Below the pieces are notes generated by a model. It was not told the DNA's origin. It saw only the letters and a program-made list of their open reading frames with translations, and searched no databases. 64,000 bases of DNA, from NCBI GenBank assembly GCA_041391945.1, contig JAWKNC010000001.1, positions 189,817 through 253,816 on the forward strand, given 5' to 3'. A program made the translations under genes and the position numbers. Within the stretch, counting starts at the first letter, position 1. The number at the start of each line of letters is the position of its first letter. Positions 35,454-53,918 of the stretch are shown here, piece after piece. This DNA comes from Allomuricauda sp. Its GTDB lineage: Bacteria; Bacteroidota; Bacteroidia; Flavobacteriales; Flavobacteriaceae.

Positions 35454-36224
35454 TTATTCCAACCAAAGCTTAAAGTCCCTTACGCGCTCCCTACTCACGA
35501 TGACTTCTTGCTCATTGAAGCGATTAAACTTGATTTGAAGCCTTGAATTTGTGTATGAAATAATGTCCTTGATGTGGTTTAGGTTCACATAGAATTTTCT
35601 GCTTACCCTGAAAAATATTTTGGGCGACAGCTCCTCCTCCAACTGTTCAAGGGTAGTTTCCAACAAGTAATTTCTACCATCCGATGTGGCTGCATAGGTA
35701 CCCTTGTTCTCACTGTAAAAACATTCCACATCATCCGCATTGATGATTTTCAAATGTTGTCCCACCTTTACGGTAAACCTTTTTTTGTACTCGCGTTCCA
35801 AGGGGTTCACCAACAGTTTTTTTATGTCGTTGAAATCCATGGAAATATTTTGGGGACCCGGTTTGAAATTCTGGTATTTTTTCACCGCCCTTTCCAGCTC
35901 TTCGTCATCGATGGGTTTGAGAAGGTAATCTATACTGTTCAACTTAAAGGCCTGAAGGGCATATTCATCAAAGGCCGTGGTGAAAATGATGGCACTGTTG
36001 ACCTCGACCGCATCAAAAATCTCAAAAGAAAGACCATCCGACAATTGAATATCCAAAAAAATCAAATCGGGGTGTGGGTTGTTCTGGAACCACTCAATGG
36101 ACTCATCCACCGAATGCAACGTGGTGGAGACCTCCACATTCAAATCTGACAGTAGTCTGCCCAATCTTCTGGCTGCCGGTTTTTCATCCTCTATGATGAT
36201 CACATTCATTTTTTGTGTGCTCAT
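35454..36224 (-). CDS. LytTR family response regulator
   Basis: IIEDE, FLDIQLSDG, FTTAFDEYAL, DYLLKP; FFRVSRKFYVN and VSRERV LytTR domain. Confidence 0.95.
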   Translation of the reverse strand: MSTQKMNVIIIEDEKPAARRLGRLLSDLNVEVSTTLHSVDESIEWFQNNPHPDLIFLDIQLSDGLSFEIFDAVEVNSAIIFTTAFDEYALQAFKLNSIDYLLKPIDDEELERAVKKYQNFKPGPQNISMDFNDIKKLLVNPLEREYKKRFTVKVGQHLKIINADDVECFYSENKGTYAATSDGRNYLLETTLEQLEEELSPKIFFRVSRKFYVNLNHIKDIISYTNSRLQIKFNRFNEQEVIVSRERVRDFKLWLE

Positions 36225-37515: not shown

Positions 37516-37594
37516 TGTTATATTGTTTAGATTTCTTTTTGATTATATCTGGGACAAACTTCGGGATATTCTCCAGTGAAGGAAAAAATGCATT

Positions 37595-37625
37595 CGCGAA
37601 CTGTTGTTTTTGAAGGATGAACCGT
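37595..37625 (-). promoter_or_regulatory. Putative LytTR direct-repeat site upstream of the 2TM genes
   Basis: Sense strand ACGGTTCATC-N11-ACAGTTCGCG, 21-bp period; same spacing to a degenerate -7 TTTG box as two other promoters. Confidence 0.75.
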
Positions 37626-37698
37626 AAGTAGGTGGTGGATGATCACTATCGAAGACCGAACACAAATTGATCTCAAGGAACCATGGGCCCGCCGAAAA

Positions 37699-39042
37699 TC
37701 AAAAATCCTCCCTGTCCATAAGTTCCTGTATCTTGCGTTCTTCCCAACGCTTGCCCCACAGTGGATTATAGCCAAACGCTTCCAGACCGTGCATCAACAC
37801 GCCAAAGCCCCATCCCAAAGTGGGGAAAAAGGCCCACAAAAAGTCCGTGGTCCTAAAGTTGAGCCACCACAAAAAGGGTATCACAATGCAGTAGGATATC
37901 AAATTGGTGTAAAAGTCCTTTATGCCCTTCACTTTTTCAAGGGCCTTTAAATACCTTTTTTCCTCAATGTAACTTTGTTGGGTTTCCATTACGGAAAGTA
38001 GTTTTGTCAACATGGGCAGGGCCACGCTAAAATCTGTCGCGGTTTTGTCTATCACCACCTGCCTATCCGTTAAAATATGATACCGCTGCTTGATATTCTG
38101 CAGTCCTACCCCACTGCTTTTCTTCACCACCTGTTTTTCTTGAAGGTTATTGGCCACCACTAGAGCGCCATCATGTTCAAAAACCCCTATTTTTAAAGGT
38201 TTTGAAGCGGTGACCACATTGTGTTTCACTGCATTTTCCAAAAGTAGTTGCAATGAAAGTGGAACAATCTTGGCATCTGGAATGGAGCATTTTTCGGGTA
38301 TTTCAAAAATGATACTGTCCTCAAACCTCATTTTTAATAGCCTGACATACGTACGGGCAAAGTCGAGTTCCTCATCCACAGTGACCAAATCTTTGTTTTT
38401 CTGTTCCAACACGTAGCGATAGACCTTGGAGAGCGATGTGGTAAATTTCTGTGCCTGATCGGGATCTTCCTCAATCAGACTGGTAAGCACATTTAGACTA
38501 TTGAACAAAAAATGGGGGTCCAATTGGTTCTTGAGGGCATCGAACCGGGCTGATGCCGATCCCGCTATGATCTTTTGTTCCTTGACCCTCTTTTCCTGCC
38601 AGTTCTTATAAAAATAGATAGCATGGAAAAAGACGGACACCACAATGGTTATCAACAGCGCAATGGCATAGTAAATAGGCCTTTCGCCAGCCACAAATCC
38701 TTCCCAGTCCTTCCCTTCAAACCCAATGTGGATAACGATCCTTATCCAAAAAATGCCCAGCATGGTAACGGCAACCCCACCCAGTGCGCTCAGCACCAAA
38801 CGATATTTTGCAAAACGCCCCCAGGTTACCTTATGGTTAAGGTAATCATAGTAGACACTGTTGATAAAGGTCAGTACAATGGAATAGAAAATATAGTACC
38901 CTACGCTGCGCAGCAGGTCCATGTCAAAAGCCACAGTCTCACCGGATGCGGCTTTTAGGCCTATAAAAATTCCGGCGACCACAAGGCCCACCGAAATTGC
39001 TATCAGGAGTAGTCTTACAATGTATACAACTGTTTTTTTCAT
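37699..39042 (-). CDS. LytS-type histidine kinase with N-terminal TM helices and a C-terminal 2TM domain
   Basis: LKNQLDPHFLFNSLN, QLLLENAVKHN, GVGLQNIKQRY; tail ALEKVKGIKDFY...WGFG...WEERKIQELM. Confidence 0.92.
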   Translation of the reverse strand: MKKTVVYIVRLLLIAISVGLVVAGIFIGLKAASGETVAFDMDLLRSVGYYIFYSIVLTFINSVYYDYLNHKVTWGRFAKYRLVLSALGGVAVTMLGIFWIRIVIHIGFEGKDWEGFVAGERPIYYAIALLITIVVSVFFHAIYFYKNWQEKRVKEQKIIAGSASARFDALKNQLDPHFLFNSLNVLTSLIEEDPDQAQKFTTSLSKVYRYVLEQKNKDLVTVDEELDFARTYVRLLKMRFEDSIIFEIPEKCSIPDAKIVPLSLQLLLENAVKHNVVTASKPLKIGVFEHDGALVVANNLQEKQVVKKSSGVGLQNIKQRYHILTDRQVVIDKTATDFSVALPMLTKLLSVMETQQSYIEEKRYLKALEKVKGIKDFYTNLISYCIVIPFLWWLNFRTTDFLWAFFPTLGWGFGVLMHGLEAFGYNPLWGKRWEERKIQELMDREDF

Positions 39043-39662
39043 TCACTGCATTGCTTGTATACCATCTCGGCCCGTTCTTTTCCCCATGTTGGGTAAAACG
39101 GTGTATCATCGTTAAAATTAGCAAAAAGTTCCAAGGCCCTTTCCACATCCTTGCAATAAGGAGCCGTATCCTGTCCAAAATATCGGGCACTTCCCATGTC
39201 CCATTCCGCCTTTGAAAACACAACCCTGGGGTTGTTTGGCGCCAATACCAAGGCTTTTTGGTACAACTGGGCATTCTTACCCGATAATGTTGGACCATAG
39301 GTAGCCCCATCAAAGGCGATCCACGCCGTATTGATCATGGCCTCTTGGACCAATAGTTCAGGATTGTCCGAGGATATGGCCTTGGCCAAATCTAAAGATT
39401 CCTTGGCCTTGCCCAACTGTTTTGACAACTTCTCTTCATCTTTCTCGCCAAAGGAGATGATGGTATTGATCTGGGCAACATAGTAGTGTGGCAGCCAGTT
39501 GTCGGGCTCGGCCATCGCAATGCGCTCAAAAAGGTTGGAAGCTTCAATGATCTTATGGTCTTTCCATAGTTGAAAGGCCTTTTCCATTCCCTGGGTATAT
39601 TGGTCCTGAGCATTGATGGTTGCCATTCCAAGTAGTACAAAAAGTGTTAGGAGTTTTTTCAT
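39039..39662 (-). CDS. Secreted TPR-like helical protein
   Basis: Signal peptide MKKLLTLFVLLGMATINA; helical repeats FERIAMAEPDNWLPHYY and LAPNNPRV. Confidence 0.7.
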   Translation of the reverse strand: MKKLLTLFVLLGMATINAQDQYTQGMEKAFQLWKDHKIIEASNLFERIAMAEPDNWLPHYYVAQINTIISFGEKDEEKLSKQLGKAKESLDLAKAISSDNPELLVQEAMINTAWIAFDGATYGPTLSGKNAQLYQKALVLAPNNPRVVFSKAEWDMGSARYFGQDTAPYCKDVERALELFANFNDDTPFYPTWGKERAEMVYKQCSE

Positions 39663-39732
39663 GACTGTTCGTTTTTAATTGATTAGTATGCCACAAAAAT
39701 TCATGTAATCCACCTATTTGGACAGAAAACTT

Positions 39733-39764
39733 TACCGAGTTGTATTTTTTGGGGGATGGACTGT
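39733..39764 (-). promoter_or_regulatory. Putative LytTR direct-repeat site upstream of the TPR-kinase operon
   Basis: Sense strand ACAGTCCATC-N11-ACAACTCGGT, 21-bp period. Confidence 0.75.
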
Positions 39765-39825
39765 TTCTTTCGGTGTAACAGAATCGATTTTTCATCATCT
39801 TTAAAACAACCATTTTCCAAAACAA

Positions 39826-40986
39826 ATGCAACTGACCAAGACCACTCTTGTCATTTTTCTTTTTTCCATCCTGTTTTACACATCCTCGTGCCGGCATCCG
39901 AAAGCCAAGGAGAACACTTCATCCAAGCAAGGCGATGTTGAATTTGCCCTGGGCGGGCTTGCCGAAAATGGCATGGATTCCCTACTCATCCTACAAATGC
40001 AAGATGCCATCCAAAAAGGCATCTATCCCAATATCCACAGTGTGTTGATTCTTAAGAACAATAGTTTGGTCTATGAAAATTACTTTCAGGGCAAAGATGA
40101 GATTTGGGGGGATGATCTAGGAGTCTTTGATCACCATAGGGACAGTCTACATGATATACGGAGTATATCCAAGAGTATTGTTGCAGCCTGTGTTGGTTTG
40201 AGCCTACAACAAGGGAACATCGATAGTCTCACGCAAAGTATATTTGACTTTTTTCCAGAGTACAAAAAATACGATACTGGTCCACGTTCCAAAATTACCG
40301 TAGAAATGTTGCTTACCATGACCTCGGGGATGGAATGGAATGAAAATGTACCCTATTCGGACCCCAGAAACAGTGAAATTCAAATGACATCCAGTGCCGA
40401 TCCCATAGAATTTGTGCTTAGTAGGCCCATTGTAACCACACCCGGGGTTACTTGGGAATATAATGGTGGCACCACCCAATTGCTTGCTTCCATTGTGGAA
40501 AGGACCAGTGGCTTGAGCATTGATGCCTATGCCAAAAAATATTTGTTCGCTCCCTTGGACATCCATGATTTTGAGTGGATTCATTTTCCTAACCTTGACG
40601 TGCCTGCCGCTGCATCAGGGTTAAGATTGAAATCAAGGGATCTGATGAAATTTGGAATGCTCTATGCCAATAATGGTCAATACAAGGGAGCCCAGCTATT
40701 ATCCAAGGAATGGGTGGAAAAATCCAAACAGCCCCATGTCTGGTTTGGACGCAACAATAATGTGGGATATGGATACCAACTCTGGATATTCAAGGCCCAT
40801 ACCATTATGGAAAGCCAAAGCCATTTGATTCCAGCAGCGGTGGGGAACGGAGGGCAGCGCATCTATATCGATGACAAAAATGGACTAATCATTGTAATTA
40901 CTGCCGGAAACTACAATGATTGGACCCTTAAAAACGATTCAGAAGCTTTACTTATTGATTTTATTTATCCGGCCTTGGCCCAATAA
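39826..40986 (+). CDS. Serine hydrolase (beta-lactamase class C / esterase family) lipoprotein
   Basis: SISK (SxxK), WEYNGG, LLTMTSG, GNGGQ; lipobox TSSC. Confidence 0.85.
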   Translation: MQLTKTTLVIFLFSILFYTSSCRHPKAKENTSSKQGDVEFALGGLAENGMDSLLILQMQDAIQKGIYPNIHSVLILKNNSLVYENYFQGKDEIWGDDLGVFDHHRDSLHDIRSISKSIVAACVGLSLQQGNIDSLTQSIFDFFPEYKKYDTGPRSKITVEMLLTMTSGMEWNENVPYSDPRNSEIQMTSSADPIEFVLSRPIVTTPGVTWEYNGGTTQLLASIVERTSGLSIDAYAKKYLFAPLDIHDFEWIHFPNLDVPAAASGLRLKSRDLMKFGMLYANNGQYKGAQLLSKEWVEKSKQPHVWFGRNNNVGYGYQLWIFKAHTIMESQSHLIPAAVGNGGQRIYIDDKNGLIIVITAGNYNDWTLKNDSEALLIDFIYPALAQ

Positions 40987-42096
40987 TTATTGGGTGCCAT
41001 AATCCTTATAAATGGCTTCTTCAAAAGCTTTCCAATGAGCCTCGGTCATTCGCCCTGGGGTGAACAAACAAATGCCCTTGGCACCGTTCTGCATAGATCC
41101 CCGAATGGCCTCTCCGATTTCCTCGGGCAATAATCCATGGTTTTCAGGATCTTTTTCATTGCCTTTCTTCTCCGGTTTGGGACAAATAAAAAGACCGCTA
41201 TAGACGGGCACACCGTTTTTTGCACTGGCGACCTCTTCCTTCACCATTTCACCTACCCATTCAGGGCCTTCCAAATAAAAGTCGTTGTAGTTCATGGGAT
41301 AAACAGCATCCAGGTTCCAATTGCCCCAATCTTGCCTAACGATTCTTTTTGCAATGGAAGGGCCCGGAAAAACCGCCGCATTTATTTTCTTGTTCTTGGA
41401 GTGTGCCACCTCTGCCAAACGGTTTACCACACTGGTGATCAAATCATACCTGAACTGTTTCCACTCCGGTACCTGGGAGGGATCTTCCACTTCTTTGATG
41501 TCGATTCCCGTTTTTTCCTTGAAATTGGATACACATTCATCACAATAGCAATAATCAAATTGTGGATACTCCCTGTCCATCACCAAACCATATTTGTCCC
41601 ATAGGCCACGGGCCAGTATCACATCGGGGAAACGGATGTAATCCAGATGGATGCCATCCACCACATCAAGGTCGGCCACACTCCCATATAGTTCGGCCAA
41701 AAAATTGTACACGCCTTCCTTGCTAGGGCAAAGGAAGGTATAATGGGGCACATAGGCCGGTTTTTCGAGTGCGGACTCTCCCAAACCATTTACGGCATAC
41801 CATTCTTCCTTGAGCTTTGGGGTCTTGGCCTGGACCATGGTGGGAATCCATGTGTGGAATTCCATTCCAGCTTCCTTGACGAGCTTGCCCACTCTTTTAT
41901 AGGTTTCCGGGTTGTGGTCTCCATGGTACATCAACCCATCAATGCCTTTTTCCTTAAGATCGGCGAACTGCGACGCCAACTCTTCATCGGTTGCATCCCC
42001 TGGACCCCCAATCCATGCGTATACTGGTATTTTGGTTCGTTCCTCACATGCCATCAAGGATAGTACCAGGGCCATCAATAAAAGAAATCTGTTCAT
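40987..42096 (-). CDS. GHL10 / DUF187-like glycoside hydrolase lipoprotein
   Basis: Lipobox LMAC; VDGIHLDYIRFP, INAAVFP, RQDWGNW, YPMNY. Confidence 0.75.
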   Translation of the reverse strand: MNRFLLLMALVLSLMACEERTKIPVYAWIGGPGDATDEELASQFADLKEKGIDGLMYHGDHNPETYKRVGKLVKEAGMEFHTWIPTMVQAKTPKLKEEWYAVNGLGESALEKPAYVPHYTFLCPSKEGVYNFLAELYGSVADLDVVDGIHLDYIRFPDVILARGLWDKYGLVMDREYPQFDYCYCDECVSNFKEKTGIDIKEVEDPSQVPEWKQFRYDLITSVVNRLAEVAHSKNKKINAAVFPGPSIAKRIVRQDWGNWNLDAVYPMNYNDFYLEGPEWVGEMVKEEVASAKNGVPVYSGLFICPKPEKKGNEKDPENHGLLPEEIGEAIRGSMQNGAKGICLFTPGRMTEAHWKAFEEAIYKDYGTQ

Positions 42097-42644
42097 TCTC
42101 GTGTTTTTTGGTTTATGAATTTGGAATTTAATGAATCTTTTTTGGCAAATCCATCATTCTTAGACGAACAACATATATGAACAAACGAACACATCGCCAA
42201 CGCCACTTGGCCATGTTGTCCCCTCAAGTACTTCAAGATTTTGGACCTTGTATCGATATACCGAGGAAACACCCCCTTGGCTCTGTAGGAAAACTTTCCG
42301 GAAACCATCTATTTATTAACAATTTTTGATTTTTAAATCATTCATTTTCAGTTTTTTACTATATTAGGTAACCGATAGCGCAAATAATTCCGCCCCACAT
42401 TATCTTCGGTTTGTTCCCCATTTTAAGTAGATCCTTACTTGCACTTGAGGTTGCTCCATGTTGCTTGAAAATAAGCAAGTTATTGCCCAAAAATCACAAT
42501 CGATCGTTGGCGTATAGTCGTTAAACCAATGAAGGCTTGCAATGTACCTATATTGATTGCCTTCATCTTTGACCGAATTACGAAATGACCCCGACCTTTT
42601 TTGGTCATGGCATTTTTTAATACATAACTTAAAATCAACAAACA

Positions 42645-43166
42645 ATGAAAAAAGTAATTTTCCAATGTGTAATGGTGGTACTGGTATTCAGCGCCTGCCA
42701 GCAGGGTCCCGTACGGTATACCCAAAATTCCCCAGAAATTGACACGGTCAAGAAGTTGATAGCCAACTATGACAGTAAAAATTTCGACACCAGCATGTAT
42801 GCGGATTCTTCAGAAACCTATTACAACACAAACAAAAATCCAATGTCTGCCACAGAGGCCATGAATTACCACAAGCAGTCTGACAGCAACTATGCTTCAC
42901 GTGGATTTGCGGACGAGCACCAGGAATATGAAATGGTGGTGACCGACAAAGGTGAAACTTGGGTAAACAGTTGGCTGGACTGGAAGGGCACCCTAGCTGC
43001 GAACGGCAAGGAAATTGAAATTCCCGTGCATTTGACCTTTCAATTCGTGAATGGAAAGATTGTCAAGGAATATGGGTACTGGGACCCCACTGAAGTTGTT
43101 CTGGAGCTACAAAAAATTGAAGCGGCAGCCAAAATGGCCGAAGAAACAGAAGAAGGAACGGAATAG
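42645..43166 (+). CDS. SnoaL/NTF2-like lipoprotein
   Basis: Lipobox FSAC; WVNSWLDWKGT, PVHLTFQFVNGKIVKEYGYWD. Confidence 0.7.
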   Translation: MKKVIFQCVMVVLVFSACQQGPVRYTQNSPEIDTVKKLIANYDSKNFDTSMYADSSETYYNTNKNPMSATEAMNYHKQSDSNYASRGFADEHQEYEMVVTDKGETWVNSWLDWKGTLAANGKEIEIPVHLTFQFVNGKIVKEYGYWDPTEVVLELQKIEAAAKMAEETEEGTE

Positions 43167-43202
43167 TCAATAAAAAGCAAAGACATCGGTACAGATTATC
43201 AT

Positions 43203-43228
43203 AAAAGGCCCAAAAATGGGCCTTTTTT
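43203..43228 (+). terminator. Rho-independent terminator
   Basis: aaaaggccca-aaaa-tgggcctttt then tt. Confidence 0.8.
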
Positions 43229-43342
43229 ATATCGAATTTAGAATTGGACTCTCTGCCCAATAAACGTTTGATATTTCAAAAGCCTCTCATTTAATATCTT
43301 TGAGCTGCTTTTTATCAAAATTGAATCAACTTTTCCAAAACT

Positions 43343-43954
43343 ATGCACATTCCCCATTACTACAAAAATGAAAACCTTGATGAGGTCAAGGATTTCTTAA
43401 AGAAAAACAGCTTCGGTATTTTGGTCAATCAGTTGAACGGTAAGCCTTGGGCCACCCATATTCCCCTTGAACTGGATGTGGACAAGGATGGGAATGAGGT
43501 TCTTTCCGGTCATATTGCCAAGGCCAATCCACAATGGCAAAGTTTTAATGATACAACAGAGGTGCTCTGCATCTTCAATGGTCCCCATACGTATATTTCT
43601 TCTTCTTGGTACAAAGAGGAAGAAGTGCCCACTTGGAATTACATTGCGGTACATGTGTATGGGAAATTGAAAGTTTTGACCGAAGAGGATACCATGGCTG
43701 CCCTACACAAGCTAGTGGATAAATATGAAGAAGGTTCGAAGAATCCGGTTTCCTTGCACCAAATGTCTCCTAAAACATTGCGACAGGTAAAGGGCATAGT
43801 GGGGTTCCATATTGTAATTTCAGAAATACATGCCGCCTATAAGCTCTCCCAGACCCGTCCGCAGGACCATCCCAAGATCATTGCGGAACTCATGGAACGC
43901 AATGATGCCGGAAGCGTGGCCATAGCCCAAGAGATGGACGGTTCAAAAACGTAG
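43343..43954 (+). CDS. paiB: FMN-binding negative transcriptional regulator (PaiB family)
   Basis: MHIPHYY, ATHIPL, GHIAKANPQW, YISSSWY, VPTWNYIAVH, KLSQ. Confidence 0.88.
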   Translation: MHIPHYYKNENLDEVKDFLKKNSFGILVNQLNGKPWATHIPLELDVDKDGNEVLSGHIAKANPQWQSFNDTTEVLCIFNGPHTYISSSWYKEEEVPTWNYIAVHVYGKLKVLTEEDTMAALHKLVDKYEEGSKNPVSLHQMSPKTLRQVKGIVGFHIVISEIHAAYKLSQTRPQDHPKIIAELMERNDAGSVAIAQEMDGSKT

Positions 43955-43963
43955 AAGCCCCTA

Positions 43964-45739
43964 TTATTCTATATCCTGATAAATGGTGTCCGCCCAATTG
44001 GAATACCGTGGATTGTCCACATGCATGATCCAAAGTTCGTCGGTATACTTTCCTTTCATTTTGGAACGGTACGCGGCATAGGCATCCTCGTTTTCTTGGT
44101 ACTTGGCCAAATACACATAATTAAGGCCATTATCAGGGTTTTTGAAATATTGGGCATCGAGTCCTTTGGCCTTTAGTTCAGCCATGAAACTCTTTAGATA
44201 ACGCTCGTTCTTAAAAACATTGGCCACAATGTAATGCCCCTTGCCCACTCCATCCAAGTCTATGAATTTCTCAATGGGCTTATAATCCCCTCCTGTGAAA
44301 GTGCCCTTACTTTTTTCACTGTGCACATCCTCTTTTTTAGAGGTAGCCGTATTGTCCACCAAACTAGTGGCTTCCATGGCGTTGTACAGGGAATCCAAGT
44401 CTTCATTCTTGGCCAAATAAAGCTGTTGTGCCTTTTCCACAATCTCGGGGCTATCGTCCTTGTTGTATCTTTTCACCATACGCATGACCATTTCAAAACG
44501 TTTTTCAAGATCGCGTTCCCTGTTCTTTTCAAGGGAGTCCATCTTATAGACCAACTCATTGATCACGGCATAGTTGTCTTGTTGCTGGGCTTTCAATAGC
44601 GCTATCTGCTCTTCCCAAAAAGCACGATCTTCCTTATTGGTGGGCCGCAAAGTGGTCTGTGCATCCAATCTGTCCTTTTTGGTTTTCTTGTCCGGTTTTG
44701 CATCCGCAACAAAAGTGCCCTCCAAAGGTTTTTGTCCTGACGCATCATTTGAGGCCACTACGTTCTTGGACATCGTCGGAACAAAGGAATATGCAATGGA
44801 TACTTCATGGGTAACTCCCAAATTGGTAAAATTGCTGTTGATGTTCTTCTCAAAATTGTAGCCAAAGGAAAGTCTCCGGTTCAGGTTAAAACCTGTGCCC
44901 GCGGAAGCTCCATAAAATTGGTCGTATCCGCCCTGGATCCATCCCACTTTGGGCAAATCCAAGATAAGTCCACCACCAAAAATAGGGTCTTGGCCCCCTT
45001 CAAACCGTACCCTTGCCAAAGGGAGCAAGCGGCCATCCTCCAGGATTCCACTTCCATTCCTGAATTCATTGGCAAATTGAATGTGCCCCGAAAAGGTCTT
45101 ATGGTGAAAGTCCGACAAGGATTCCCCGGTTTTGATGTTGTAGTCTACCAAGTTTTGGGCGAAAACACCAAAATCAAACTTTCCCAAAGAAAGATTGATG
45201 CCCGGTTGAAAGGAAATAATGGACGTTTGGGTGGCATCGTTCAATACGGGGTCATCTTCCAGCGCAACCGCCCTGTCTGGGTCAAAACTGCTCACATAAT
45301 ATGGTATGTTGACCCCAAAACTAAGGCTACTATTTTGCCCCAGTTGGATTCCATGGGAGTAGTTGGCCATTATGCCCAAGTTGGAAATAACACCTTCCTG
45401 TTGGTTGTACAGACTAACGCCCATGCCGATCCTATCGTTGAGCCTACTGCTGTAGCTCAAGAAATAGTTCTGGTTGTTGTCATTGAAATTTGCGCTTTGG
45501 CTCCTATGAAACAGGTTGACATAGGATTTGTCTTCCCGAACCGCCGAAAAGGTCGGGTTTATCAAAAAACGGTTGAATTTCAACAGATTCTGGAAGGGCA
45601 CATTATAGCTCACATAGGGATTGCTTTCTTGTGCAGGGACAGTGTTGTTCCACAATGCACAGGAAACAATCAGACAAAAAGTCCAATTAAAACGAAATAT
45701 AGATGCGTTTTTTGGGGACAGGGGTAGTTTTACATCCAT
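43964..45739 (-). CDS. PorP/SprF-family T9SS membrane protein with C-terminal coiled-coil and SPOR-like domain
   Basis: NRFLINPTFS, beta-barrel-like alternating strands to THEVSIAYSF, then helical linker and HYIVANVFKN...YVYLAKY...WIMHV. Confidence 0.75.
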   Translation of the reverse strand: MDVKLPLSPKNASIFRFNWTFCLIVSCALWNNTVPAQESNPYVSYNVPFQNLLKFNRFLINPTFSAVREDKSYVNLFHRSQSANFNDNNQNYFLSYSSRLNDRIGMGVSLYNQQEGVISNLGIMANYSHGIQLGQNSSLSFGVNIPYYVSSFDPDRAVALEDDPVLNDATQTSIISFQPGINLSLGKFDFGVFAQNLVDYNIKTGESLSDFHHKTFSGHIQFANEFRNGSGILEDGRLLPLARVRFEGGQDPIFGGGLILDLPKVGWIQGGYDQFYGASAGTGFNLNRRLSFGYNFEKNINSNFTNLGVTHEVSIAYSFVPTMSKNVVASNDASGQKPLEGTFVADAKPDKKTKKDRLDAQTTLRPTNKEDRAFWEEQIALLKAQQQDNYAVINELVYKMDSLEKNRERDLEKRFEMVMRMVKRYNKDDSPEIVEKAQQLYLAKNEDLDSLYNAMEATSLVDNTATSKKEDVHSEKSKGTFTGGDYKPIEKFIDLDGVGKGHYIVANVFKNERYLKSFMAELKAKGLDAQYFKNPDNGLNYVYLAKYQENEDAYAAYRSKMKGKYTDELWIMHVDNPRYSNWADTIYQDIE

Positions 45740-46009
45740 AGCCGAGAGGGGTTTGTAGGTTAAAAGGCCTGCAGGGGACAGGCATATGTATTTTATTGGG
45801 TCTCATTAGCAAGATTTGGGATTCTTGTAAGACTTTTACTATTAATCTCAACTGTAATATTACGTTTTTTTTCGCCAAATAGCCAATTTACTCGTTGAAC
45901 GGCAATGTGATTCAGTTATTTAACATTTTTGAGCTTAAAAACCGGAGGTGTTTGTAAAAAAAACATTTCAATTCGAACTAATTTTGGTGCTTTAACCTAA
46001 ACCCAATAT

Positions 46010-46492
46010 ATGGCCAATCCACCAATGATAGTTCCTTACTCGGAGATGTATAAATCGGCGTTCAAGGACCTCAACGAAGAATGGATCACCAAGTATTTCA
46101 AAATGGAGGAGATGGACCGCATATCCTTGAACCATCCCAAGGAATATATACTGGACAAGGGAGGCTATATTGCCGTGGCCCTGCTTGATGATGAACCTGT
46201 CGGGGTTTGTGCGCTAATTCCCAGTAACCGTGAAGGGTTTGATTTTGAACTGGCCAAAATGGGCGTTTCGCCAAAAGCCCAGGGCCTGGGAATCGGTAAG
46301 TTATTGGGGCTGCACATCATTGAAATGGCCAAGGGCATGGGCGCCAAAAAATTATACCTGGAAAGTAACAGGATCTTAAAACCAGCCATCAGTTTGTACC
46401 TTAAACTGGGTTTTGTGGAAATGGTCGGGGCCAAATCCCCGTATGAAAGGAGCGACATTCAAATGGAATTGCCCTTGGTGGACAACCCCTAA
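46010..46492 (+). CDS. GNAT family N-acetyltransferase
   Basis: FELAKMGVSPKAQGLGIG, LYLESNRILKPAISLYLKLGF. Confidence 0.9.
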   Translation: MANPPMIVPYSEMYKSAFKDLNEEWITKYFKMEEMDRISLNHPKEYILDKGGYIAVALLDDEPVGVCALIPSNREGFDFELAKMGVSPKAQGLGIGKLLGLHIIEMAKGMGAKKLYLESNRILKPAISLYLKLGFVEMVGAKSPYERSDIQMELPLVDNP

Positions 46493-46497
46493 AATCC

Positions 46498-47592
46498 CTA
46501 AAAACCATTCAAGGCGAAAAGGCGGATTTGTTCCTTCTTGCCCCGTAGTTGAAGTTTGGCAATTTCCCAGAATTCCATAGATTCAGTTTCCTTCAATTTG
46601 TCCCTCAACTGTTCGGACACCAAAATCTTGGTGCCATAATTGTTGCACTGATCTTGTATGCGTGCCGCTGTGTTGAGCACATCTCCCGTGTAGATGATCT
46701 CCTTTTTTATGACCCCTATTTCGCCCGTGGTCACCAATCCCACATGGTACCCTGCCTTGAACGACGGAAAAAAATTGAACTTTTTTTCATAACGGGCCTT
46801 TTTCTGTTCCAAGGTTTTTGAAATGCGCAGAAAGCATTCAATGCAATTGTTTTTGTACAATCCCATTTTTTCTGGCCAAGTGATCACTATCTCATCGCCA
46901 ACATACTGGTATATTTCGCCAGAAGTTTCCAAAATGGGATTGGCCATATCCGCGTAATAGTCCTTCAGCAGTTCAAAAAACTTGGCATGTCCCAGCTGTT
47001 CGGCAATGGTTGTTGAGGATTTCATGTCCAGGAACATGAAAATACGGCTTTCCCGCTTTGGGGTATGATATTTTCCAAACAAGAAGTTTAGGAATACCCC
47101 GGTTCCGACATAGATGGAGAGTTCTGCAAAGAGCATGGCAATGAGCAAGGCGAATGCAATATAAACGACCACGCTCCAAAACGTATACCTTCCCACAAAA
47201 AATTCGACACTTTGGATTACTTCCTGACTTAAGATCGGTGCATCAAACCTTCTTGAGTTCACCGCAAAGGACAACATAATCAGAAATAGGATGATAAAAC
47301 CCGTATAGAATGAAGTTTTGATTGAAATCTTTGTCCATAATCTACTCTTGGCCAGTTTTTTGCTAAGCCATGTCACCTCTATCCAACCGTGGATCAAGCC
47401 CGTGAGGAAACCGCCCACACTTGCATAGATGAGCGAACTTTTAAAATCATATTTGTTGTGGGTGGTAGGGTAATATTCCAATCTTCCCAAAATGCCCTGT
47501 TCTATAATACTGTACACTAGGCCAAAAAGGAACCAAATACAGGCGAACAACAAGGCCTGTTTGGCATAACGGATGTATTTGGGATGGAACAT
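46498..47592 (-). CDS. Membrane-anchored class III nucleotidyl cyclase
   Basis: Several TM helices, then FMFLDMKSST, YQYVGDE, GDVLNTAARIQ. Confidence 0.85.
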   Translation of the reverse strand: MFHPKYIRYAKQALLFACIWFLFGLVYSIIEQGILGRLEYYPTTHNKYDFKSSLIYASVGGFLTGLIHGWIEVTWLSKKLAKSRLWTKISIKTSFYTGFIILFLIMLSFAVNSRRFDAPILSQEVIQSVEFFVGRYTFWSVVVYIAFALLIAMLFAELSIYVGTGVFLNFLFGKYHTPKRESRIFMFLDMKSSTTIAEQLGHAKFFELLKDYYADMANPILETSGEIYQYVGDEIVITWPEKMGLYKNNCIECFLRISKTLEQKKARYEKKFNFFPSFKAGYHVGLVTTGEIGVIKKEIIYTGDVLNTAARIQDQCNNYGTKILVSEQLRDKLKETESMEFWEIAKLQLRGKKEQIRLFALNGF

Positions 47593-47732
47593 GATGATTA
47601 AAGGTAGCACATTATCAAATACGTTTGGAATTGCGGCCAATTTGGGGATATACGGTATGTCTAACGGTGAAAAATTTTAATGCCTCGCTAAAAATGAGTA
47701 CATTAAATGGTTAATTCGATAATTTCGAAACC

Positions 47733-48155
47733 ATGGGTACAGTAAAAAGTTTGAACAAATGGGCCAATGCCCATACGTACTATCCTTTAGATCTGGTACG
47801 TATTGCCTTGGGAATTTTCCTTTTCATCAAGGGCGTTGAGTTTATGACCAACCATGAACAAATGTCTGAAATGGCAAGACCTTTTCAAGATATGCCAGGG
47901 GGCATGATCGTTTTGCACTACATTGCGCCGGCACATTTTGTGGGCGGGTTTTTGATCGTTGTTGGTTTACTGACCCGATGGGCATCCTTGGCTCAAATAC
48001 CGATCCTTATTGGGGCCATCTTGACCAACTTTTTGGGACAAATGCATACCACCAATCTCATTTTGTCCGTAATTACTTTTTTGGTGTGCCTATTTTTCAT
48101 TGTGTACGGCTCTGGAAAGCATTCCGCTGATTATTACCTGAAAATGCAACAATAG
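47733..48155 (+). CDS. DoxX family membrane protein
   Basis: LVRIALGIFLFIKG, GLLTRWAS, GSGKHSAD. Confidence 0.8.
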   Translation: MGTVKSLNKWANAHTYYPLDLVRIALGIFLFIKGVEFMTNHEQMSEMARPFQDMPGGMIVLHYIAPAHFVGGFLIVVGLLTRWASLAQIPILIGAILTNFLGQMHTTNLILSVITFLVCLFFIVYGSGKHSADYYLKMQQ

Positions 48156-48160
48156 TACCA

Positions 48161-50323
48161 TTACAGGTTATCCAACTGATTGCTTTTGCCATCGGAACTG
48201 ATGGTCCAAAAGAAACCTACGAAGAAAAAACTATCGGCCGCTGGGGTTATTGCCCTACGTTCAAAAACACCATTCGTATTTGGAATGTCCGCATACTGGT
48301 AATTGCTGATATTGTTGAAGCCCAGCACATTGCTCACCGAAAAATAAAGAATCTTCTGTTGGTCGATCAAATAGGCCCAGTTTATGCTCAGACTATTGAA
48401 GGATTTGGTCTTTTCTGCCATAAAGTCCATAGTATTGGGATTGTTATAGGGCCTACCAGAACCAAAGGAATAAGATACCCCAACCTGCGAGCGGAGTTTC
48501 TCCACCCAATATTTTGTAACCACCGATAGGTTATGCTTTGACGCGAAATTGGGAGTGGCCCTTTCCGCAAAGTCCCTGTAGTCCCTTTTTGTGTCCAAAT
48601 AAGAGTAGGAAAGCCAGTAGTCTAGATGGTCGATACTCTTATTGTCCCTCCAAAAAATATCCAAGCCCGTGGCATAGCCGCTTCCCATGTTGTCAAAATT
48701 GGAATCAAATTGCGGTGAAGGTGTGTCATATTTGATGAGGTTGTCATAGTCCTTATAATAGGCCTCGGCCCTAAAGGTCTTGCCTTGGTCCAAGTACTGG
48801 TAGTTTAAAATATAGTGCGTGGTTTTTTCGGATAGCACCGAGGCATCAAATTTGACCACTTCTGCCAATGGAGTTTGGTAAAAATCGCCATAGGCCAATG
48901 AAAATTGTCCCTTTTCTCCAGGTTTATAGGCCAACGATATCCTTGGGGAAACCGTAAAATCATCCAAAAGAGAACCATACTCTCCCCTAGCCCCCAATTT
49001 CATGGCAAATCGATTGCTCAGAAAGATATCCGTCTCCACAAAACCGGCCCATAGCCGATCTTTATAATCACTGGTGAAGAAAGAACCGTCGGGTATTGAC
49101 AAAGTATCCCCATAGTCCATTAGGAAAAACTCCCCGCCGAAATTAAGATCAAACCTGCTGCTGAAATTTTTTCTGGCCTTCAATTTTATGTGTGATGCCG
49201 TTTCCTTGGCATCGATGTCATCTCCCTCCAAAGCAATGACATTGGTGTCCCAAGAGATGGAAGCCCCGGAGGTCAAGCTCCAATCATTGTCAAAATAATA
49301 TTTGTGGGATGCATTGAAATACAGATTGTTATTGGCCAATTGAAAACGGACGAAATCGTCAAAATTGATATCTTCCTGCTCAATGTCCAGATTGGCATGG
49401 TTGAAACCCGTGTACAGCTTGAACATGCTTTTATTCCCCCTGCTCCTGAAGACCGCTTCCCCTGCAATGGATTCATAAGGGCTGTTCCACTGCACGCCTT
49501 GGCTGGATGGCACCAACGCCTCATAGGGCGAAAGGTTGATGTAGGAAGCGTTCACACTAAGCGATTGATCGCCCCATATTTTGGTGTGGCCCAATCCCCC
49601 TCCCACGGACATTACCGAAATATCCGTTTTTCCCTGATCTGGCTCATCCGTGGTGTTCAACAACAATACGCTGGAGAGTGCCTGACCATATTCTGCGGAG
49701 TAGCCCCCGGTGCTAAAAGTGATGCCTTTAAAAAGGAATGGTGAGAAACGGCCCCGGGTAGGTATGTTGTTCGCGGTGGCGCTGAAAGGCTGAAAAACCC
49801 GAAGACCATCAATAAATACCTGAGTCTCCCCCGCCTCACCACCCCGCACAAAAAGCCTGCCATCCTCTGATACCGTAGTGGTTCCTGGCAAGGTCTGCAA
49901 AGCTCCCACAAAGTCCCCGACCGCACCGGCGGTGGTCACAATATCCAGAGGTTTTAGCACGGATACCTTGGAATTGTCGCCCGCCTCAAAGGTCCCGGCA
50001 GTCAACGTGACCCCGGTCAACGCATTGATGGACTCGGCCAATTTGATTTTCAACTCCTTAAAAAAGCTCACATCGCCAACCTCATAATGCGTATCATAGG
50101 ACAGCATGGAAATAACCAAGGTCTGGGTACCGGTTTCCGTTGTTTCAAAACCAAAATGGCCTGACTCATCGGTGGAGGCCCCATCATAGGTGCCTTCCAA
50201 ATACACATTGGCCCCCACAATGGGATTGTTCTTCGCATCCGTCACAATTCCAGAAATCGATGTCTGTGCAAAGAGAAGGTGAAAATGACAAAGAAGACAT
50301 AGCAAAAAAATGTGGTTTTTCAT
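48161..50323 (-). CDS. TonB-dependent receptor with N-terminal carboxypeptidase-regulatory-like domain
   Basis: Signal peptide; ISGIVTD...GANV; plug DGRLFVRGGEAGETQVFIDG and GGYSAEYGQALSSV; barrel ending FFVGFFW. Confidence 0.9.
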   Translation of the reverse strand: MKNHIFLLCLLCHFHLLFAQTSISGIVTDAKNNPIVGANVYLEGTYDGASTDESGHFGFETTETGTQTLVISMLSYDTHYEVGDVSFFKELKIKLAESINALTGVTLTAGTFEAGDNSKVSVLKPLDIVTTAGAVGDFVGALQTLPGTTTVSEDGRLFVRGGEAGETQVFIDGLRVFQPFSATANNIPTRGRFSPFLFKGITFSTGGYSAEYGQALSSVLLLNTTDEPDQGKTDISVMSVGGGLGHTKIWGDQSLSVNASYINLSPYEALVPSSQGVQWNSPYESIAGEAVFRSRGNKSMFKLYTGFNHANLDIEQEDINFDDFVRFQLANNNLYFNASHKYYFDNDWSLTSGASISWDTNVIALEGDDIDAKETASHIKLKARKNFSSRFDLNFGGEFFLMDYGDTLSIPDGSFFTSDYKDRLWAGFVETDIFLSNRFAMKLGARGEYGSLLDDFTVSPRISLAYKPGEKGQFSLAYGDFYQTPLAEVVKFDASVLSEKTTHYILNYQYLDQGKTFRAEAYYKDYDNLIKYDTPSPQFDSNFDNMGSGYATGLDIFWRDNKSIDHLDYWLSYSYLDTKRDYRDFAERATPNFASKHNLSVVTKYWVEKLRSQVGVSYSFGSGRPYNNPNTMDFMAEKTKSFNSLSINWAYLIDQQKILYFSVSNVLGFNNISNYQYADIPNTNGVFERRAITPAADSFFFVGFFWTISSDGKSNQLDNL

Positions 50324-50384
50324 GACTGTTCGTTGATTGATGACCCAAAATTGCCCCAATATGCAGTCCTAGACCAAAAGGAAA

Positions 50385-50416
50385 TACCGAACTGTGGAAT
50401 TTTGGCGATGAGTTGA
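50385..50416 (-). promoter_or_regulatory. Putative LytTR direct-repeat site upstream of the TonB-dependent receptor
   Basis: Sense strand TCAACTCATC-N11-ACAGTTCGGT, 21-bp period. Confidence 0.75.
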
Positions 50417-50492
50417 AGAGACCTTTCTATTTTGTCCGTATCACATTAAGCATTACATTTAATTATCTGTTCATCAACCTTAAACCAATACC

Positions 50493-53400
50493 ATCAAACG
50501 GTCTGTTTACATAATATTTATTGTATGCTTTGCCATGGACTTCCTTCAAGGGCAGACCAATCCGATAGACAGTTTGCAAAAGAGGTACCACGAGGTAGAT
50601 TCGGACTCCTTGCGCATCCGTATCTTGAAGGATATTGCGTGGGAATACCTCAATAATCGTGGCAATGCGGAACTGGCAAAGAAGCATATCGATAGTTTTT
50701 ACACTATCAGCAAAGAAGCCAATATCCCTTGGGGAATCACCATGGCCAACTACCAATATGCGGTACTGGACAGGCAGAAGGGAAACTATAGCAAAGCCCT
50801 TGCCCATATTGACGGATACCTCGATTCCCCAATCACCCAAAAAGAGCCTTTTGCCATAGCCAACGGACTGTACCAAAAGGCCTTGATCCTTGACAATTAT
50901 GGCAGTTTAGAGGAAAGCTTGAAAATCTATTACGATATCCTCAAGATCTACGAAAAGCAAAAAGATTCCTTTAGCTATGCCTTTACATTGAATGCCATGG
51001 GCGAAATCCAAAAAAAGACTGGAAAAATGTCCGAAGCCATGGAAAGCTACGAGCATGCTCTGGGTATTTTTAGAGATTTGGGCGACAAAACGGAAATTGC
51101 CAATTGCCTTTTCAACATAGGGGACACCTATCTACAACAAAAACAATACGATAAGGCACTGGAGTACTTGAACAAATCCTTGGCCTTGGATGAAGAGACC
51201 AACAGCGAATGGGGAAAAGCTTTTGATTATGAGGCTCTGGGGAAGGTATATGGTCATCAAAAAAAATATGCCCAATCTTTGGAATACCACAAAAAGGCGT
51301 TGGAACTCAGGGAAAAGTTGGGGCAAAGGTTGGAACTCTCCATGAGCCATACCCAGATTGGCATCATAAATCTAAAAATGAAAGATTTCGCCAATGCCGA
51401 GGAAAGTATTCTTAAGGCCATAGAAGTTTCCAAGGATATTGGCGCAAAACCCCAACTCCAGGAAAATTATGAAATCCTCTCCCAGATATACGAACAAACT
51501 GGGGAATACGAAAAAGCACTGACCTTCAAAAATAAATTTGTCACACTGAAGGACAGTCTGTTCACCGAGGCCAAATCCAGGCAAATTGAAGAACTTCAGG
51601 TGCGGTTTGACACGGAAAAAAAACAGGATGCCATTGCTGCACTTCAAAAAGATGCCGAAATAAACGACCTAAAGCTCCGTCAGCAAAAAACACTCCGTAA
51701 TGTGGTCATCGGTATTGCCCTTGCAGGTTTGGTGTTCCTTTGGTTCGCCTTTAACCGATACAAACAGGCTCAACGTGCCAAGCAGGCCGAAGAGGAGAAG
51801 AAAAGAGCCATTTTGGAGGAACGGAAACGCACCGAAATTGAGAAACAACGGGTAAGCGAGCTTCAAAAAATAGACAAACTCAAGGATGAGTTCCTGGCCA
51901 ATACCTCCCACGAGCTTCGAACTCCTCTGGTGGGGATCATCGGTCTTACGGAGTCCCTGAAAGATGGTGTGGCCGGCAAACTGCCAAAGGCAGCTTTGGA
52001 AAACCTGGATATGATCGCCAATAGCGGCAAAAGGCTCTCACATTTGGTGAACGATATCCTCGACTTTTCAAAATTGAAGAACAAAGATTTGGAATTATCG
52101 CCAAAGCCAGTGGATGTCCATGCTATTTCCAGTATCGTTCTACGCCTGTCCAACCCATTGGTAAAGGATAAAAAATTAAAACTGATCAATTCCATTCCCA
52201 AAGAGGTGCCCTTGGTTGAGGCCGATGAAAACAGACTCCAACAAATATTGTACAATTTGGTGGGCAATGCCATCAAGTTTACGCACAAGGGGTACATTAC
52301 CCTGTCCTCGGAAATACAGGAAAATAGGCTTGCCATATCGATTGCCGATACCGGAATAGGAATCCAAGATGATAAATTGGATATCATCTTCAATTCCTTT
52401 GAGCAGGCGGATGGATCCACACAAAGGGAATATGGCGGTACGGGACTTGGGCTTTCGGTGACCAAACAACTGGTAGAACTCCATGGTGGTACTATAAGTG
52501 CCTCTTCCGAAAAAGGCAAGGGTTCCATTTTCACCTTTACACTTCCGCTAAGCACCAAAAAGAGAAAGGACCTTAAAAAGGAGGACTACACCCCGGAGGA
52601 TTTCGTCCAAAACATAGTCGCTCATGATGAAGATTTATCCATATCCGGAAAAAGGCCCAAATCTTCAGAGGAAGCCGCCAAAATACTTATTGTTGATGAC
52701 GAGCCCGTCAACAGACGGGTCTTGGAAAACCATTTGACCGTTGCCGGATACGACATAACCGAGGTAAGCACGGGAAAAGGAGCCTTAAAGTTGCTTGAGG
52801 AAGATGCATCCTTCAACTTGGTTCTGCTGGATATCATGATGCCCGAAATTTCCGGTTATGAGGTCTGTGAAAAAATCCGAGAAAAATACCCGGCCAGCGA
52901 CCTGCCCATCATTTTACTCACGGCAAAGAACACGGTCAGTGATCTTGTGACCGGTTTCAACTCGGGGGCCAACGATTATTTGACCAAGCCCTTCTCCAAG
53001 AATGAACTTTTGAGCCGGATCAAGACCCACCTCAACCTCAACACCATCCATAGGGCCACTTCACGATTTGTGCCAGCAGAATTTGTGCGTTCCGTGGGCA
53101 AGGAATCCATCACGGATATTCGGCTGGGAGATCACATTGAGAAAAGTGTAACCGTTCTGTTCTCCGATATTCGGGACTACACAACCCTTTCCGAAAGCAT
53201 GACGCCCACCCAGAACTTTAAGTTCGTCAATGCGTACGTGGGTCGTATGGGACCCATCATCAAGGACAACGATGGTTTTGTAAACCAGTATATGGGAGAC
53301 GGAATCATGGCCCTATTCCCCAAAAAACCTGAAAATGCCTTGGATGCCGCCATAGAAATGCAACGGACCTTGGCCCTTTATAATAAAAGAAGAGTCGAGG

Positions 53401-53918
53401 AAAAAGGCTATAAACCGCTATCTGTTGGGATTGGGCTCCACACAGGGCCATTGATCATGGGCATCATTGGCGATTCCAAAAGAAATGATCCCGCGGTGAT
53501 TGCCGATACCGTAAACAGTGCCGCCAGGGTGGAGGGCGTCACCAAATATTTTGGGGCCAACATCATCATCAGTGAGGACAGTCTAAAATTAATGGAGGAT
53601 CCCTCAGGTTTCAATATTAGATATTTGGGAAAAGTGCGGGTAAAGGGCAAACAAAAAGCCATCGAAATTTATGAATGTATCGATGGCGACAGTGTGGAAA
53701 GCATCTCCTTAAAACTGGAGACCAAAAAACATTATGACGAGGGCATAGACCTCTTTTTCAACAGTCAGTTCAACGAGGCTTCCACAGCGTTTGAGTGGGT
53801 CCTCTACAAAAATCCAGGGGATTCCGTAGCCAAATACTTCAATGAAAAAGCCAAGAAATATGCGGTATTGGGTATTCCCGAGGATTGGGCATCAGGAACC
53901 GTACTGTACGAAAAATAG
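50493..53918 (+). CDS. Hybrid sensor: periplasmic TPRs - TM - HisKA/HATPase - REC - class III cyclase
   Basis: TPR repeats; TM VVIGIALAGLVFLWFAF; NTSHELRTP; NLVGNAIKF, DTGIG, GTGLGL; REC VDDE/LLDIMMP; cyclase LFSDIR, GDG, NSAARVE. In-frame ATC at 50493 restores a signal peptide (first ATG is 50535). Confidence 0.9.
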   Translation: MKRSVYIIFIVCFAMDFLQGQTNPIDSLQKRYHEVDSDSLRIRILKDIAWEYLNNRGNAELAKKHIDSFYTISKEANIPWGITMANYQYAVLDRQKGNYSKALAHIDGYLDSPITQKEPFAIANGLYQKALILDNYGSLEESLKIYYDILKIYEKQKDSFSYAFTLNAMGEIQKKTGKMSEAMESYEHALGIFRDLGDKTEIANCLFNIGDTYLQQKQYDKALEYLNKSLALDEETNSEWGKAFDYEALGKVYGHQKKYAQSLEYHKKALELREKLGQRLELSMSHTQIGIINLKMKDFANAEESILKAIEVSKDIGAKPQLQENYEILSQIYEQTGEYEKALTFKNKFVTLKDSLFTEAKSRQIEELQVRFDTEKKQDAIAALQKDAEINDLKLRQQKTLRNVVIGIALAGLVFLWFAFNRYKQAQRAKQAEEEKKRAILEERKRTEIEKQRVSELQKIDKLKDEFLANTSHELRTPLVGIIGLTESLKDGVAGKLPKAALENLDMIANSGKRLSHLVNDILDFSKLKNKDLELSPKPVDVHAISSIVLRLSNPLVKDKKLKLINSIPKEVPLVEADENRLQQILYNLVGNAIKFTHKGYITLSSEIQENRLAISIADTGIGIQDDKLDIIFNSFEQADGSTQREYGGTGLGLSVTKQLVELHGGTISASSEKGKGSIFTFTLPLSTKKRKDLKKEDYTPEDFVQNIVAHDEDLSISGKRPKSSEEAAKILIVDDEPVNRRVLENHLTVAGYDITEVSTGKGALKLLEEDASFNLVLLDIMMPEISGYEVCEKIREKYPASDLPIILLTAKNTVSDLVTGFNSGANDYLTKPFSKNELLSRIKTHLNLNTIHRATSRFVPAEFVRSVGKESITDIRLGDHIEKSVTVLFSDIRDYTTLSESMTPTQNFKFVNAYVGRMGPIIKDNDGFVNQYMGDGIMALFPKKPENALDAAIEMQRTLALYNKRRVEEKGYKPLSVGIGLHTGPLIMGIIGDSKRNDPAVIADTVNSAARVEGVTKYFGANIIISEDSLKLMEDPSGFNIRYLGKVRVKGKQKAIEIYECIDGDSVESISLKLETKKHYDEGIDLFFNSQFNEASTAFEWVLYKNPGDSVAKYFNEKAKKYAVLGIPEDWASGTVLYEK

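Follow-up and report, generated by a model that had tools for sequence, protein, structure and literature searches.

Three direct-repeat boxes in a 64,000-nucleotide (nt) stretch of the genome of Allomuricauda sp. (assembly GCA_041391945.1, contig JAWKNC010000001.1, positions 189,817 to 253,816 of the forward strand; hereafter the window) are probably operators of a single response regulator with REC and LytTR domains, which would act in a self-activating circuit for a Hus-type uptake pair. One box precedes an operon of four 2TM genes that ends with the regulator gene itself, the second an operon for the 207-amino-acid (aa) protein p207 and a histidine kinase, and the third the gene of a TonB-dependent receptor (Table 1). 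A first-pass annotation, made from the letters of the window, had proposed a LytTR regulon with autoregulatory wiring at these promoters. This proposal is supported by phylogenetic footprinting, in which the same box is found before all three orthologous gene sets.

The pattern CGARYTGT-N11-GATGRRYYG has three exact matches in the window, all on the plus strand (37597-37624, 39736-39763 and 50388-50415), and none elsewhere in the 3.55 Mb assembly, so that the genome total equals the three window sites; shuffling the window yielded matches in 0 of 100 controls. The sites of the first-pass annotation are therefore real, although the box starts that it gave (37595, 39733 and 50385) are 2-3 nt too low, while its starts for the -7-like octamers (37555, 39694 and 50346) are exact, each preceding its box by 42 nt on the plus strand. 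Because the pattern was drawn up after the sites were known, the genome was scanned with an independent 36-nt weight matrix trained on 25 sites from other genomes only, a check that the annotation had itself suggested. With scores of 38.9, 36.4 and 24.8 bits, the three sites occupy ranks 1-3 of 7,094,074 positions. The fourth-best match (C1:181446, 19.6 bits), in coding DNA where two plus-strand genes meet, is wrongly oriented, has no minus-strand gene downstream and was put down to chance.

All genes concerned lie on the minus strand, and in gene sense each site consists of two ACA(A/G)TTC repeats with a period of 21 bp, in agreement with the direct-repeat reading given earlier. Operator 1 reads CGGTTCATC-N11-ACAGTTCG, operator 2 CAGTCCATC-N11-ACAACTCG and operator 3 CAACTCATC-N11-ACAGTTCG, followed in every case by 34 nt and then by the -7-like box (GAAGTTTG, AATTTTTG and CAATTTTG, respectively). 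The consensus of 28 aligned sites, tACAaTtCATCC-N10-ACAgTTCGGtAA, corresponds to two 9-bp direct repeats ACA(A/G)TTCnn separated by a 12-bp spacer, and this motif occupies both repeat positions, with the 12-nt spacer, in all three window sites as well as in all 28 aligned ones. Operator 3, the lowest-scoring of the three, is matched with an E value of 9e-11 by R1, a sequence-only model built from the 28 sites.

The fixed geometry extends into the core promoter. In all three promoters the proximal 9-mer ends 8 bp before a TTTG or a T-tract at the -33 position. Only the receptor promoter has TTTG itself, separated from the -7 box by a 21-nt spacer and conserved as CCTTTTGG in most orthologous receptor promoters; the other two promoters carry a T-tract. 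In Bacteroides promoters, the -33 TTTG is located about 19-21 bp upstream of the -7 box. The -7 elements had been called degenerate, and they do depart from TAnnTTTG, but only mildly: just the first T differs, and the A and TTTG are invariant across 28 aligned promoters. Since the sigma-A -7 box of Flavobacterium psychrophilum, with this consensus, spans -12 to -5 (PMC9723704), transcription is predicted to start at the A residues at 37550, 39689 and 50341, which would place the repeats at about -75 to -46, with centres near -71 and -50. A scan for sigma-70-type promoters and terminators gave no excess over shuffled sequence. It detected no terminator-like site between the kinase stop codon and the 2TM operon, and read-through from the upstream operon into the 2TM operon is therefore possible. 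An Rfam scan found no known RNA element near any of the three promoters.

The arrangement is widely conserved. The same-genus relatives are Flagellimonas species, a group previously called Muricauda or Allomuricauda. Of 24 genomes from this genus, 19 contain the strict pattern and none a reversed control pattern. With one exception, the gene behind each match is an orthologue of p207 (identity 73-76%) or of 2TMa, the first 2TM gene (52-65%), and relatives keep the locus arranged as p207, kinase, box, four 2TM genes, regulator; the exception (L027) has no -7 box and no related gene downstream and was discarded. Model R1 detects the p207 and 2TM sites in 15 of 15 same-genus genomes, together with weaker sites 6-20 kb away. 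All 13 of the weaker sites that were retrieved precede an orthologue of the TonB receptor (74-82% identity) with the same neighbours, and so the third promoter is not peculiar to this genome. In a set of 80 loci around p207 homologues (Flagellimonas/Croceitalea), matrix matches above 14 bits fall almost exclusively on the gene strand, before p207 and the first 2TM gene, and the few additional ones all lie before the receptor orthologue, a DUF2141 gene or another 2TM gene. Over 66 distinct p207 promoters and 67 distinct 2TMa promoters, the peaks of information content are confined to the two repeats, the T-tract and nA..TTTG, with values near zero elsewhere; TTTG follows ACAGTTCG at exactly 38 nt in 65/66 of the former and 51/67 of the latter. 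Beyond these genera, 10 of 11 Flavobacteriaceae loci have the operator at an identical offset, and p207 orthologues were found in 85 of the 151 Flavobacteriaceae genera sampled. In about 10 of the 80 loci, the operator lies some 520 nt upstream of p207 rather than about 100 nt.

Gene content fits the LytTR assignment made in the first-pass annotation: a REC-LytTR gene stands behind one box, a PF06580 kinase behind another, and the repeats follow the published layout. The regulator gene joins the four 2TM genes without a gap behind the box at 37597, and its orthologue comes after the 2TM genes in relatives too. The kinase translation contains the H of DPHFLFN, an N-box (LLENAVKHN) and a G-box (GVGLQN), lacks a large periplasmic domain, and ends in a 2TM module of its own (PF13239 6.6e-28, residues 366-443). 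No Pfam match to the LytS-type 5TMR-LYT sensor domain was obtained in the kinase at E<=0.01, where His_kinase and 2TM are the only hits, and the nearest NCBIfam models for the two-component pair, BtsR and LytR, remain far below their cut-offs. The four free 2TM proteins are paralogues of the kinase tail, to which the first of them is about 49% identical. Five of the six 2TM modules in the genome are found at this locus; the sole one outside it (C4:229941-230183, in a 151-aa frame) has no operator match nearby. A second His_kinase/LytTR pair (C1:281000-292000, L160) is divergent from a TonB receptor-DUF4249 operon. Tested for 21-bp repeats, this locus yielded just a CAGTTCAATT pair 46 bp apart and was uninformative.

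The p207 protein had been described as a secreted TPR protein. It is exported and its helical fold is TPR-like, but fold and profile matches identify it as a HusA-family, haemophore-like protein. No Pfam family covers it. The AlphaFold model (AF2; predicted local distance difference test score, pLDDT, 85; predicted TM-score, pTM, 0.79) has HusA of Porphyromonas gingivalis (6bqs) as by far its best Foldseek match among PDB folds (E 1e-6, TM-scores 0.78/0.80, root-mean-square deviation 2.6 Å over 188 columns); generic TPR proteins reach only 0.4-0.6 against the same model. With Pfam TPR models far below threshold and TPR structures fitting much worse than HusA, the reading as an ordinary TPR protein was abandoned. 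A profile of 12 p207 orthologues likewise has HusA (6bqs/6crl) as its best match in the PDB (E 1.7e-9, residues 44-205). A HusA homologue from Chitinophaga is 29% identical to p207 (E 3e-22), and when this protein and its counterpart from Porphyromonas cangingivalis were searched against the genome, p207 was the sole match.

The receptor shows the corresponding relationship to HusB. The Chitinophaga receptor encoded beside the HusA homologue is 38% identical to the window receptor over 719 aa (E 1e-139), and its next match in the genome (E 5e-7) is confined to the N-terminal domain. For P. cangingivalis HusB, the window receptor is again the best match in the genome, with colinear segments of 34% and 26% identity; the others are weak (E 5e-5 and 1e-3). 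The p207 and receptor genes lie 10.6 kb apart here, whereas in Croceitalea and several other genera the receptor stands directly upstream of p207, like husB-husA. A gene for a DoxX-family membrane protein (47733-48155) converges on the end of the receptor gene, and the order receptor-DoxX-GNAT is kept in all but one of 13 relatives.

Hus-type loci for comparison were retrieved through HusA homologues. The P. cangingivalis locus comprises husD, husC (winged helix), husB (734 aa) and husA, and the Chitinophaga locus encodes a 718-aa receptor, the HusA homologue and a winged-helix gene. In these winged-helix-regulated loci the operator score reaches 4.3 bits at best, which indicates that it is the kinase/LytTR module, rather than the uptake genes, that the box accompanies. 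Neither HusC nor HusD has a tblastn match in the present genome; HusD was also considered as a 2TM relative and rejected, as it has no Pfam match and no similarity. Upstream of husD-husC in P. cangingivalis (L154:3600-3700), GTTGTCTAA occurs twice as a direct repeat and once inverted as TTAGACAAC, a candidate HusC operator.

Relatives appear to possess a fourth regulon target, a secreted DUF2141 protein, whose gene is deleted in this genome. In 12 of 13 relatives the receptor is divergent from a gene for a 139-aa exported DUF2141 protein, and a second, oppositely oriented operator lies in the promoter of this gene, again 34 nt from the -7 box. The gene beside the receptor is gone from the present genome and from one other. 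Compared with the nearest relative (L070:3560-4140), about 560 bp are missing at window positions 50416-50440, corresponding to the DUF2141 operator, promoter, coding sequence and terminator, and a 32%-identical paralogue is all that is found of DUF2141 elsewhere in the genome. Searches for DUF2141 returned no solved relative and no functional literature. Following the loss, the receptor is divergent from a hybrid TPR-kinase-REC-cyclase gene (50535-53918).

Taken as a circuit, these elements would operate as follows. The kinase (37699-39042) would phosphorylate the regulator (35454-36224), which would bind the two 9-bp direct repeats as a dimer and help sigma-A RNA polymerase to start at promoters with a T-rich -33 region and an nAnnTTTG -7 box. 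The units switched on would be the p207-kinase operon, the operon of four 2TM genes and the regulator, the distant TonB-dependent receptor gene and, in relatives, DUF2141. Activation of the operons of both the regulator and the kinase would create positive feedback on both signalling genes and hence a self-amplifying induction. The inducer would most likely be the cargo of the Hus-type pair, perhaps haem, a porphyrin or a similar planar hydrophobic compound. The ligand had been left as unknown in the first-pass annotation, and the HusA/HusB homology narrows it to this testable guess. The p207 protein carries a signal peptide that lacks a lipobox cysteine, and its gene shares an operon with that of the kinase; p207 may thus capture the imported compound in the periplasm and pass the signal on to the kinase. 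The four inducible 2TM proteins, as paralogues of the kinase tail, are candidate kinase-modulating subunits.

Several observations weigh against this interpretation in one or another of its parts. The hydrophobic groove of HusA accommodates haem and, more tightly, metal-free porphyrins, which are presumed to be passed on to the TonB-dependent receptor HusB (PMC6173696, PMC12094164). Residues L123, V124, W130 and Y164 of HusA have been implicated in porphyrin binding (PMC12094164), and the corresponding positions of p207 (A116, F117, G123 and G157) do not conserve them; the ligand may therefore differ. Invariant aromatic residues of p207 (W114, F117, Y122 and W154) sit beside the aligned groove positions. 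The genome also encodes ferrochelatase, so that the organism has no need to scavenge porphyrin, unlike P. gingivalis, a porphyrin auxotroph. A tetrapyrrole ligand is accordingly a reasoned guess, rather more apt to prove wrong than right. On the regulatory side, the assignment of the boxes to this particular regulator depends on the site before its own operon, in a genome with 18 LytTR genes. Strict activator dependence is not evident from sequence alone either, given the good -33 TTTG of the receptor promoter and -7 boxes in which just the first T is missing.

These points give room to other explanations. A possible one, though clearly less probable than a cargo-induced circuit, is that the wiring is the same but the kinase senses the state of the membrane or envelope through its membrane region and the 2TM modules, with p207 and the receptor as outputs only. 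A kinase without a large periplasmic domain, bearing a C-terminal 2TM module and accompanied by four co-regulated 2TM paralogues, suits such a role, and the altered pocket residues of p207 and the capacity of the organism to make haem point in the same direction. Against it stands the 4-nt overlap of the p207 and kinase genes, which suggests translational coupling and belongs to a pairing kept in every locus examined; moreover, the related E. coli system YpdA/YpdB, of the LytS/LytTR type, takes extracellular pyruvate as its signal and has the yhjX promoter as a target (PMC4847170).

It is unlikely that the boxes are bound by some other factor, for which the neighbouring regulator would be a target, be it one of the 17 other LytTR regulators or an AraC-type protein. 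The large number of LytTR genes leaves candidates for this, repeat geometry alone cannot name the binder, and AraC-type proteins also use 21-bp direct repeats. However, every genome examined, from many genera, has the box in front of the operons of this kinase and this regulator; Hus loci with a winged-helix regulator lack it, and no AraC-type gene is conserved at the locus. Slightly less probable still is repression by the same regulator. The direction of control cannot be read from sequence, and the near-consensus -33 TTTG of the receptor promoter would be compatible with it, but the repeats do not overlap the core promoter: at about -75 to -46 they lie wholly upstream of -33, as described for LytTR activators (PMC6193735, PMC4227749). 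That the similarity is a remnant of promoter duplication with no regulatory meaning is scarcely credible. The three promoters do have a common leader in addition, as would be expected of duplicated DNA; nevertheless, in the 66 and 67 distinct promoters the DNA between and around the conserved elements (repeats, T-tract and -7 box) has diverged until almost no information is left, and the encoded proteins are just 52-76% identical. On this footprint, the duplication explanation is effectively excluded.

As putative operators of a self-activating LytTR circuit, the boxes can be compared with known LytTR sites, which consist of 9-11-nt repeats, direct or inverted, with 11-13-nt spacers (PMC4847170). 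In streptococcal LytTR systems, the repeats lie 4-11 bp upstream of the -35 element and mediate positive autoregulation (PMC6193735). The putative operators described here share with those of AgrA at agr P2/P3, S. mutans HdrR/BrsR and YpdB at yhjX the repeat length and a 12-bp spacer, as well as a location a few bp ahead of the upstream promoter element and before the regulator's own operon. Their core ACAGTT resembles the LytTR sites given in the first-pass annotation, which are of the AgrA type. The proximal repeat of AgrA is centred at about -60 (PMC4227749), compared with about -50 predicted here. What differs is the context, a Bacteroidota sigma-A promoter with -33/-7 elements instead of -35/-10, and the repeat sequence ACA(A/G)TTC(A/G)(T/G), which is particular to this family.

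At the level of the signalling proteins, the system resembles BtsS/BtsR and YpdA/YpdB of E. coli and LytS/LytR in combining a PF06580 kinase with a REC-LytTR regulator and in having an uptake protein among its outputs. It differs from them in the absence of a 5TMR-LYT match, in the 2TM tail of the kinase and the four free 2TM paralogues, in the co-transcription of an exported HusA-like protein with the kinase, and in a TonB-dependent receptor as output. With the Hus system of P. gingivalis it shares the fold and family of HusA (p207) and a receptor of the HusB family that is of the same length and colinear, and, in several Flavobacteriaceae genera, the adjacency of the receptor and binding-protein genes. 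Unlike in P. gingivalis, a kinase/LytTR pair takes the place of the winged-helix HusC and the membrane protein HusD, the genes are separated, the porphyrin contacts are not conserved, p207 has no lipobox cysteine, and the host is a free-living marine bacterium with ferrochelatase.

Operator layout and positive autoregulation are already standard for LytTR regulators. What is new is that such an operator is defined for promoters of Bacteroidota, that the proposed regulon comprises a HusA/HusB-type pair, DUF2141 and 2TM proteins, and that a kinase/LytTR module stands in place of a winged-helix Hus regulator. In the literature searched, no paper pairs HusA with LytTR, or HusA with Flavobacteriaceae and porphyrin; nothing relevant was found on LytTR with 2TM or on LytTR regulons of Bacteroidetes, and no defined operator or regulon of a Bacteroidota LytTR regulator came up in these searches. 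LytTR regulators are abundant in this phylum, and the present case yields a complete prediction comprising operator, geometry, start sites, four target classes and a ligand class. For the HusA/HusB family, investigated solely in the oral pathogen Porphyromonas, free-living marine bacteria provide a conserved counterpart, and 2TM (PF13239) and DUF2141, families of unknown function, are placed in a defined regulatory setting. Should the ligand prove to be haem or a porphyrin, the circuit would bear on iron and tetrapyrrole scavenging by algae-associated flavobacteria. A more far-reaching version, in which more than half of the sampled Flavobacteriaceae genera share an undescribed tetrapyrrole-sensing circuit, is speculative and rather improbable as a whole: a HusA-like protein would report the ligand to a LytS-type kinase, the 2TM hairpin of the kinase would exchange with four free 2TM feedback subunits, and the LytTR regulator would drive a HusB-type receptor and DUF2141.

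Table 1. Genes, putative operators and predicted promoter elements of the proposed LytTR circuit (window coordinates)
Feature	Position	Strand	Remarks
Response regulator, REC + LytTR, 256 aa	35454..36224	-	PF00072 1.2e-13, PF04397 1.7e-21; last gene of 2TM operon
2TM gene d, open reading frame 155 aa	36225..36692	-	PF13239 6.2e-18; probable start ATG 36560, giving 111 aa
2TM gene c, 105 aa	36583..36900	-	PF13239 2.5e-27
2TM gene b, open reading frame 142 aa	36891..37319	-	PF13239 2.7e-30; probable start ATG 37193, giving 100 aa
2TM gene a (2TMa), 92 aa	37237..37515	-	PF13239 1.6e-25; first behind operator 1; orthologues with 52-65% identity behind same box
-7-like box GAAGTTTG, 2TM-regulator operon	37555..37562	-	predicted start A at 37550
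T-tract at -33 position, promoter 1	37583..37588	-	conserved T-tract in 67 distinct 2TMa promoters
Putative operator 1	37596..37625	-	distal ACGGTTCAT, proximal ACAGTTCGC, 21-bp period; 38.9 bits, rank 1
Histidine kinase, 447 aa	37699..39042	-	PF06580 3.2e-26; N-terminal membrane region, ATPase motifs, C-terminal 2TM
p207, 207 aa, exported, HusA-family haemophore-like, TPR-like all-helical	39039..39662	-	overlaps kinase start by 4 nt
-7-like box AATTTTTG, p207-kinase operon	39694..39701	-	predicted start A at 39689
T-tract at -33 position, promoter 2	39726..39729	-	from sequence and footprint alignment
Putative operator 2	39735..39764	-	distal ACAGTCCAT, proximal ACAACTCGG, 21-bp period; 36.4 bits, rank 2
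TonB-dependent receptor, HusB family, 720 aa from ATG 50323	48161..50323	-	Pfam Plug, beta-barrel, CarboxypepD_reg
Predicted 18-nt leader ATCAATCAACGAACAGTC of receptor	50324..50341	-	common to p207 and most orthologous targets
-7-like box CAATTTTG, receptor gene	50346..50353	-	predicted start A at 50341
-33 element TTTG, receptor promoter	50375..50378	-	21 nt upstream of -7 box, 8 nt downstream of proximal 9-mer
Putative operator 3	50387..50416	-	distal TCAACTCAT, proximal ACAGTTCGG, 21-bp period; 24.8 bits, rank 3

A further shared element was observed downstream of the predicted start sites. A leader of the form CATCAATCAA...AAAACGAACAGTC stands directly 5' of the ATG of the receptor (50324-50341) and of p207 (39663-39689), as well as of most orthologous targets. 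The genome contains ACGAACAGTCATG only four times, and of 2402 long open reading frames 3 have CAGTC before their ATG. The leader is also present at C3:62086(-), C10:54642(+) and C1:285637(-) of this genome. Considered as an extra regulator site, CATCAATCAA...AACGAACAGTC immediately before ATG was rejected as unspecific, since it also lies within an extracytoplasmic-function (ECF)/anti-sigma/Toastrack operon and within another receptor operon, of the receptor-DUF4249 type. It was further seen before a 35-aa open reading frame. The leader may be a translation-initiation element or a small-RNA target. In loci L004, L011, L012 and L021-L023 of relatives, the p207 leader contains a 20-45-nt insertion, hairpin-like (GCGCAGTCAAG...CTGAGC), between the AATCAA motif and the start codon.

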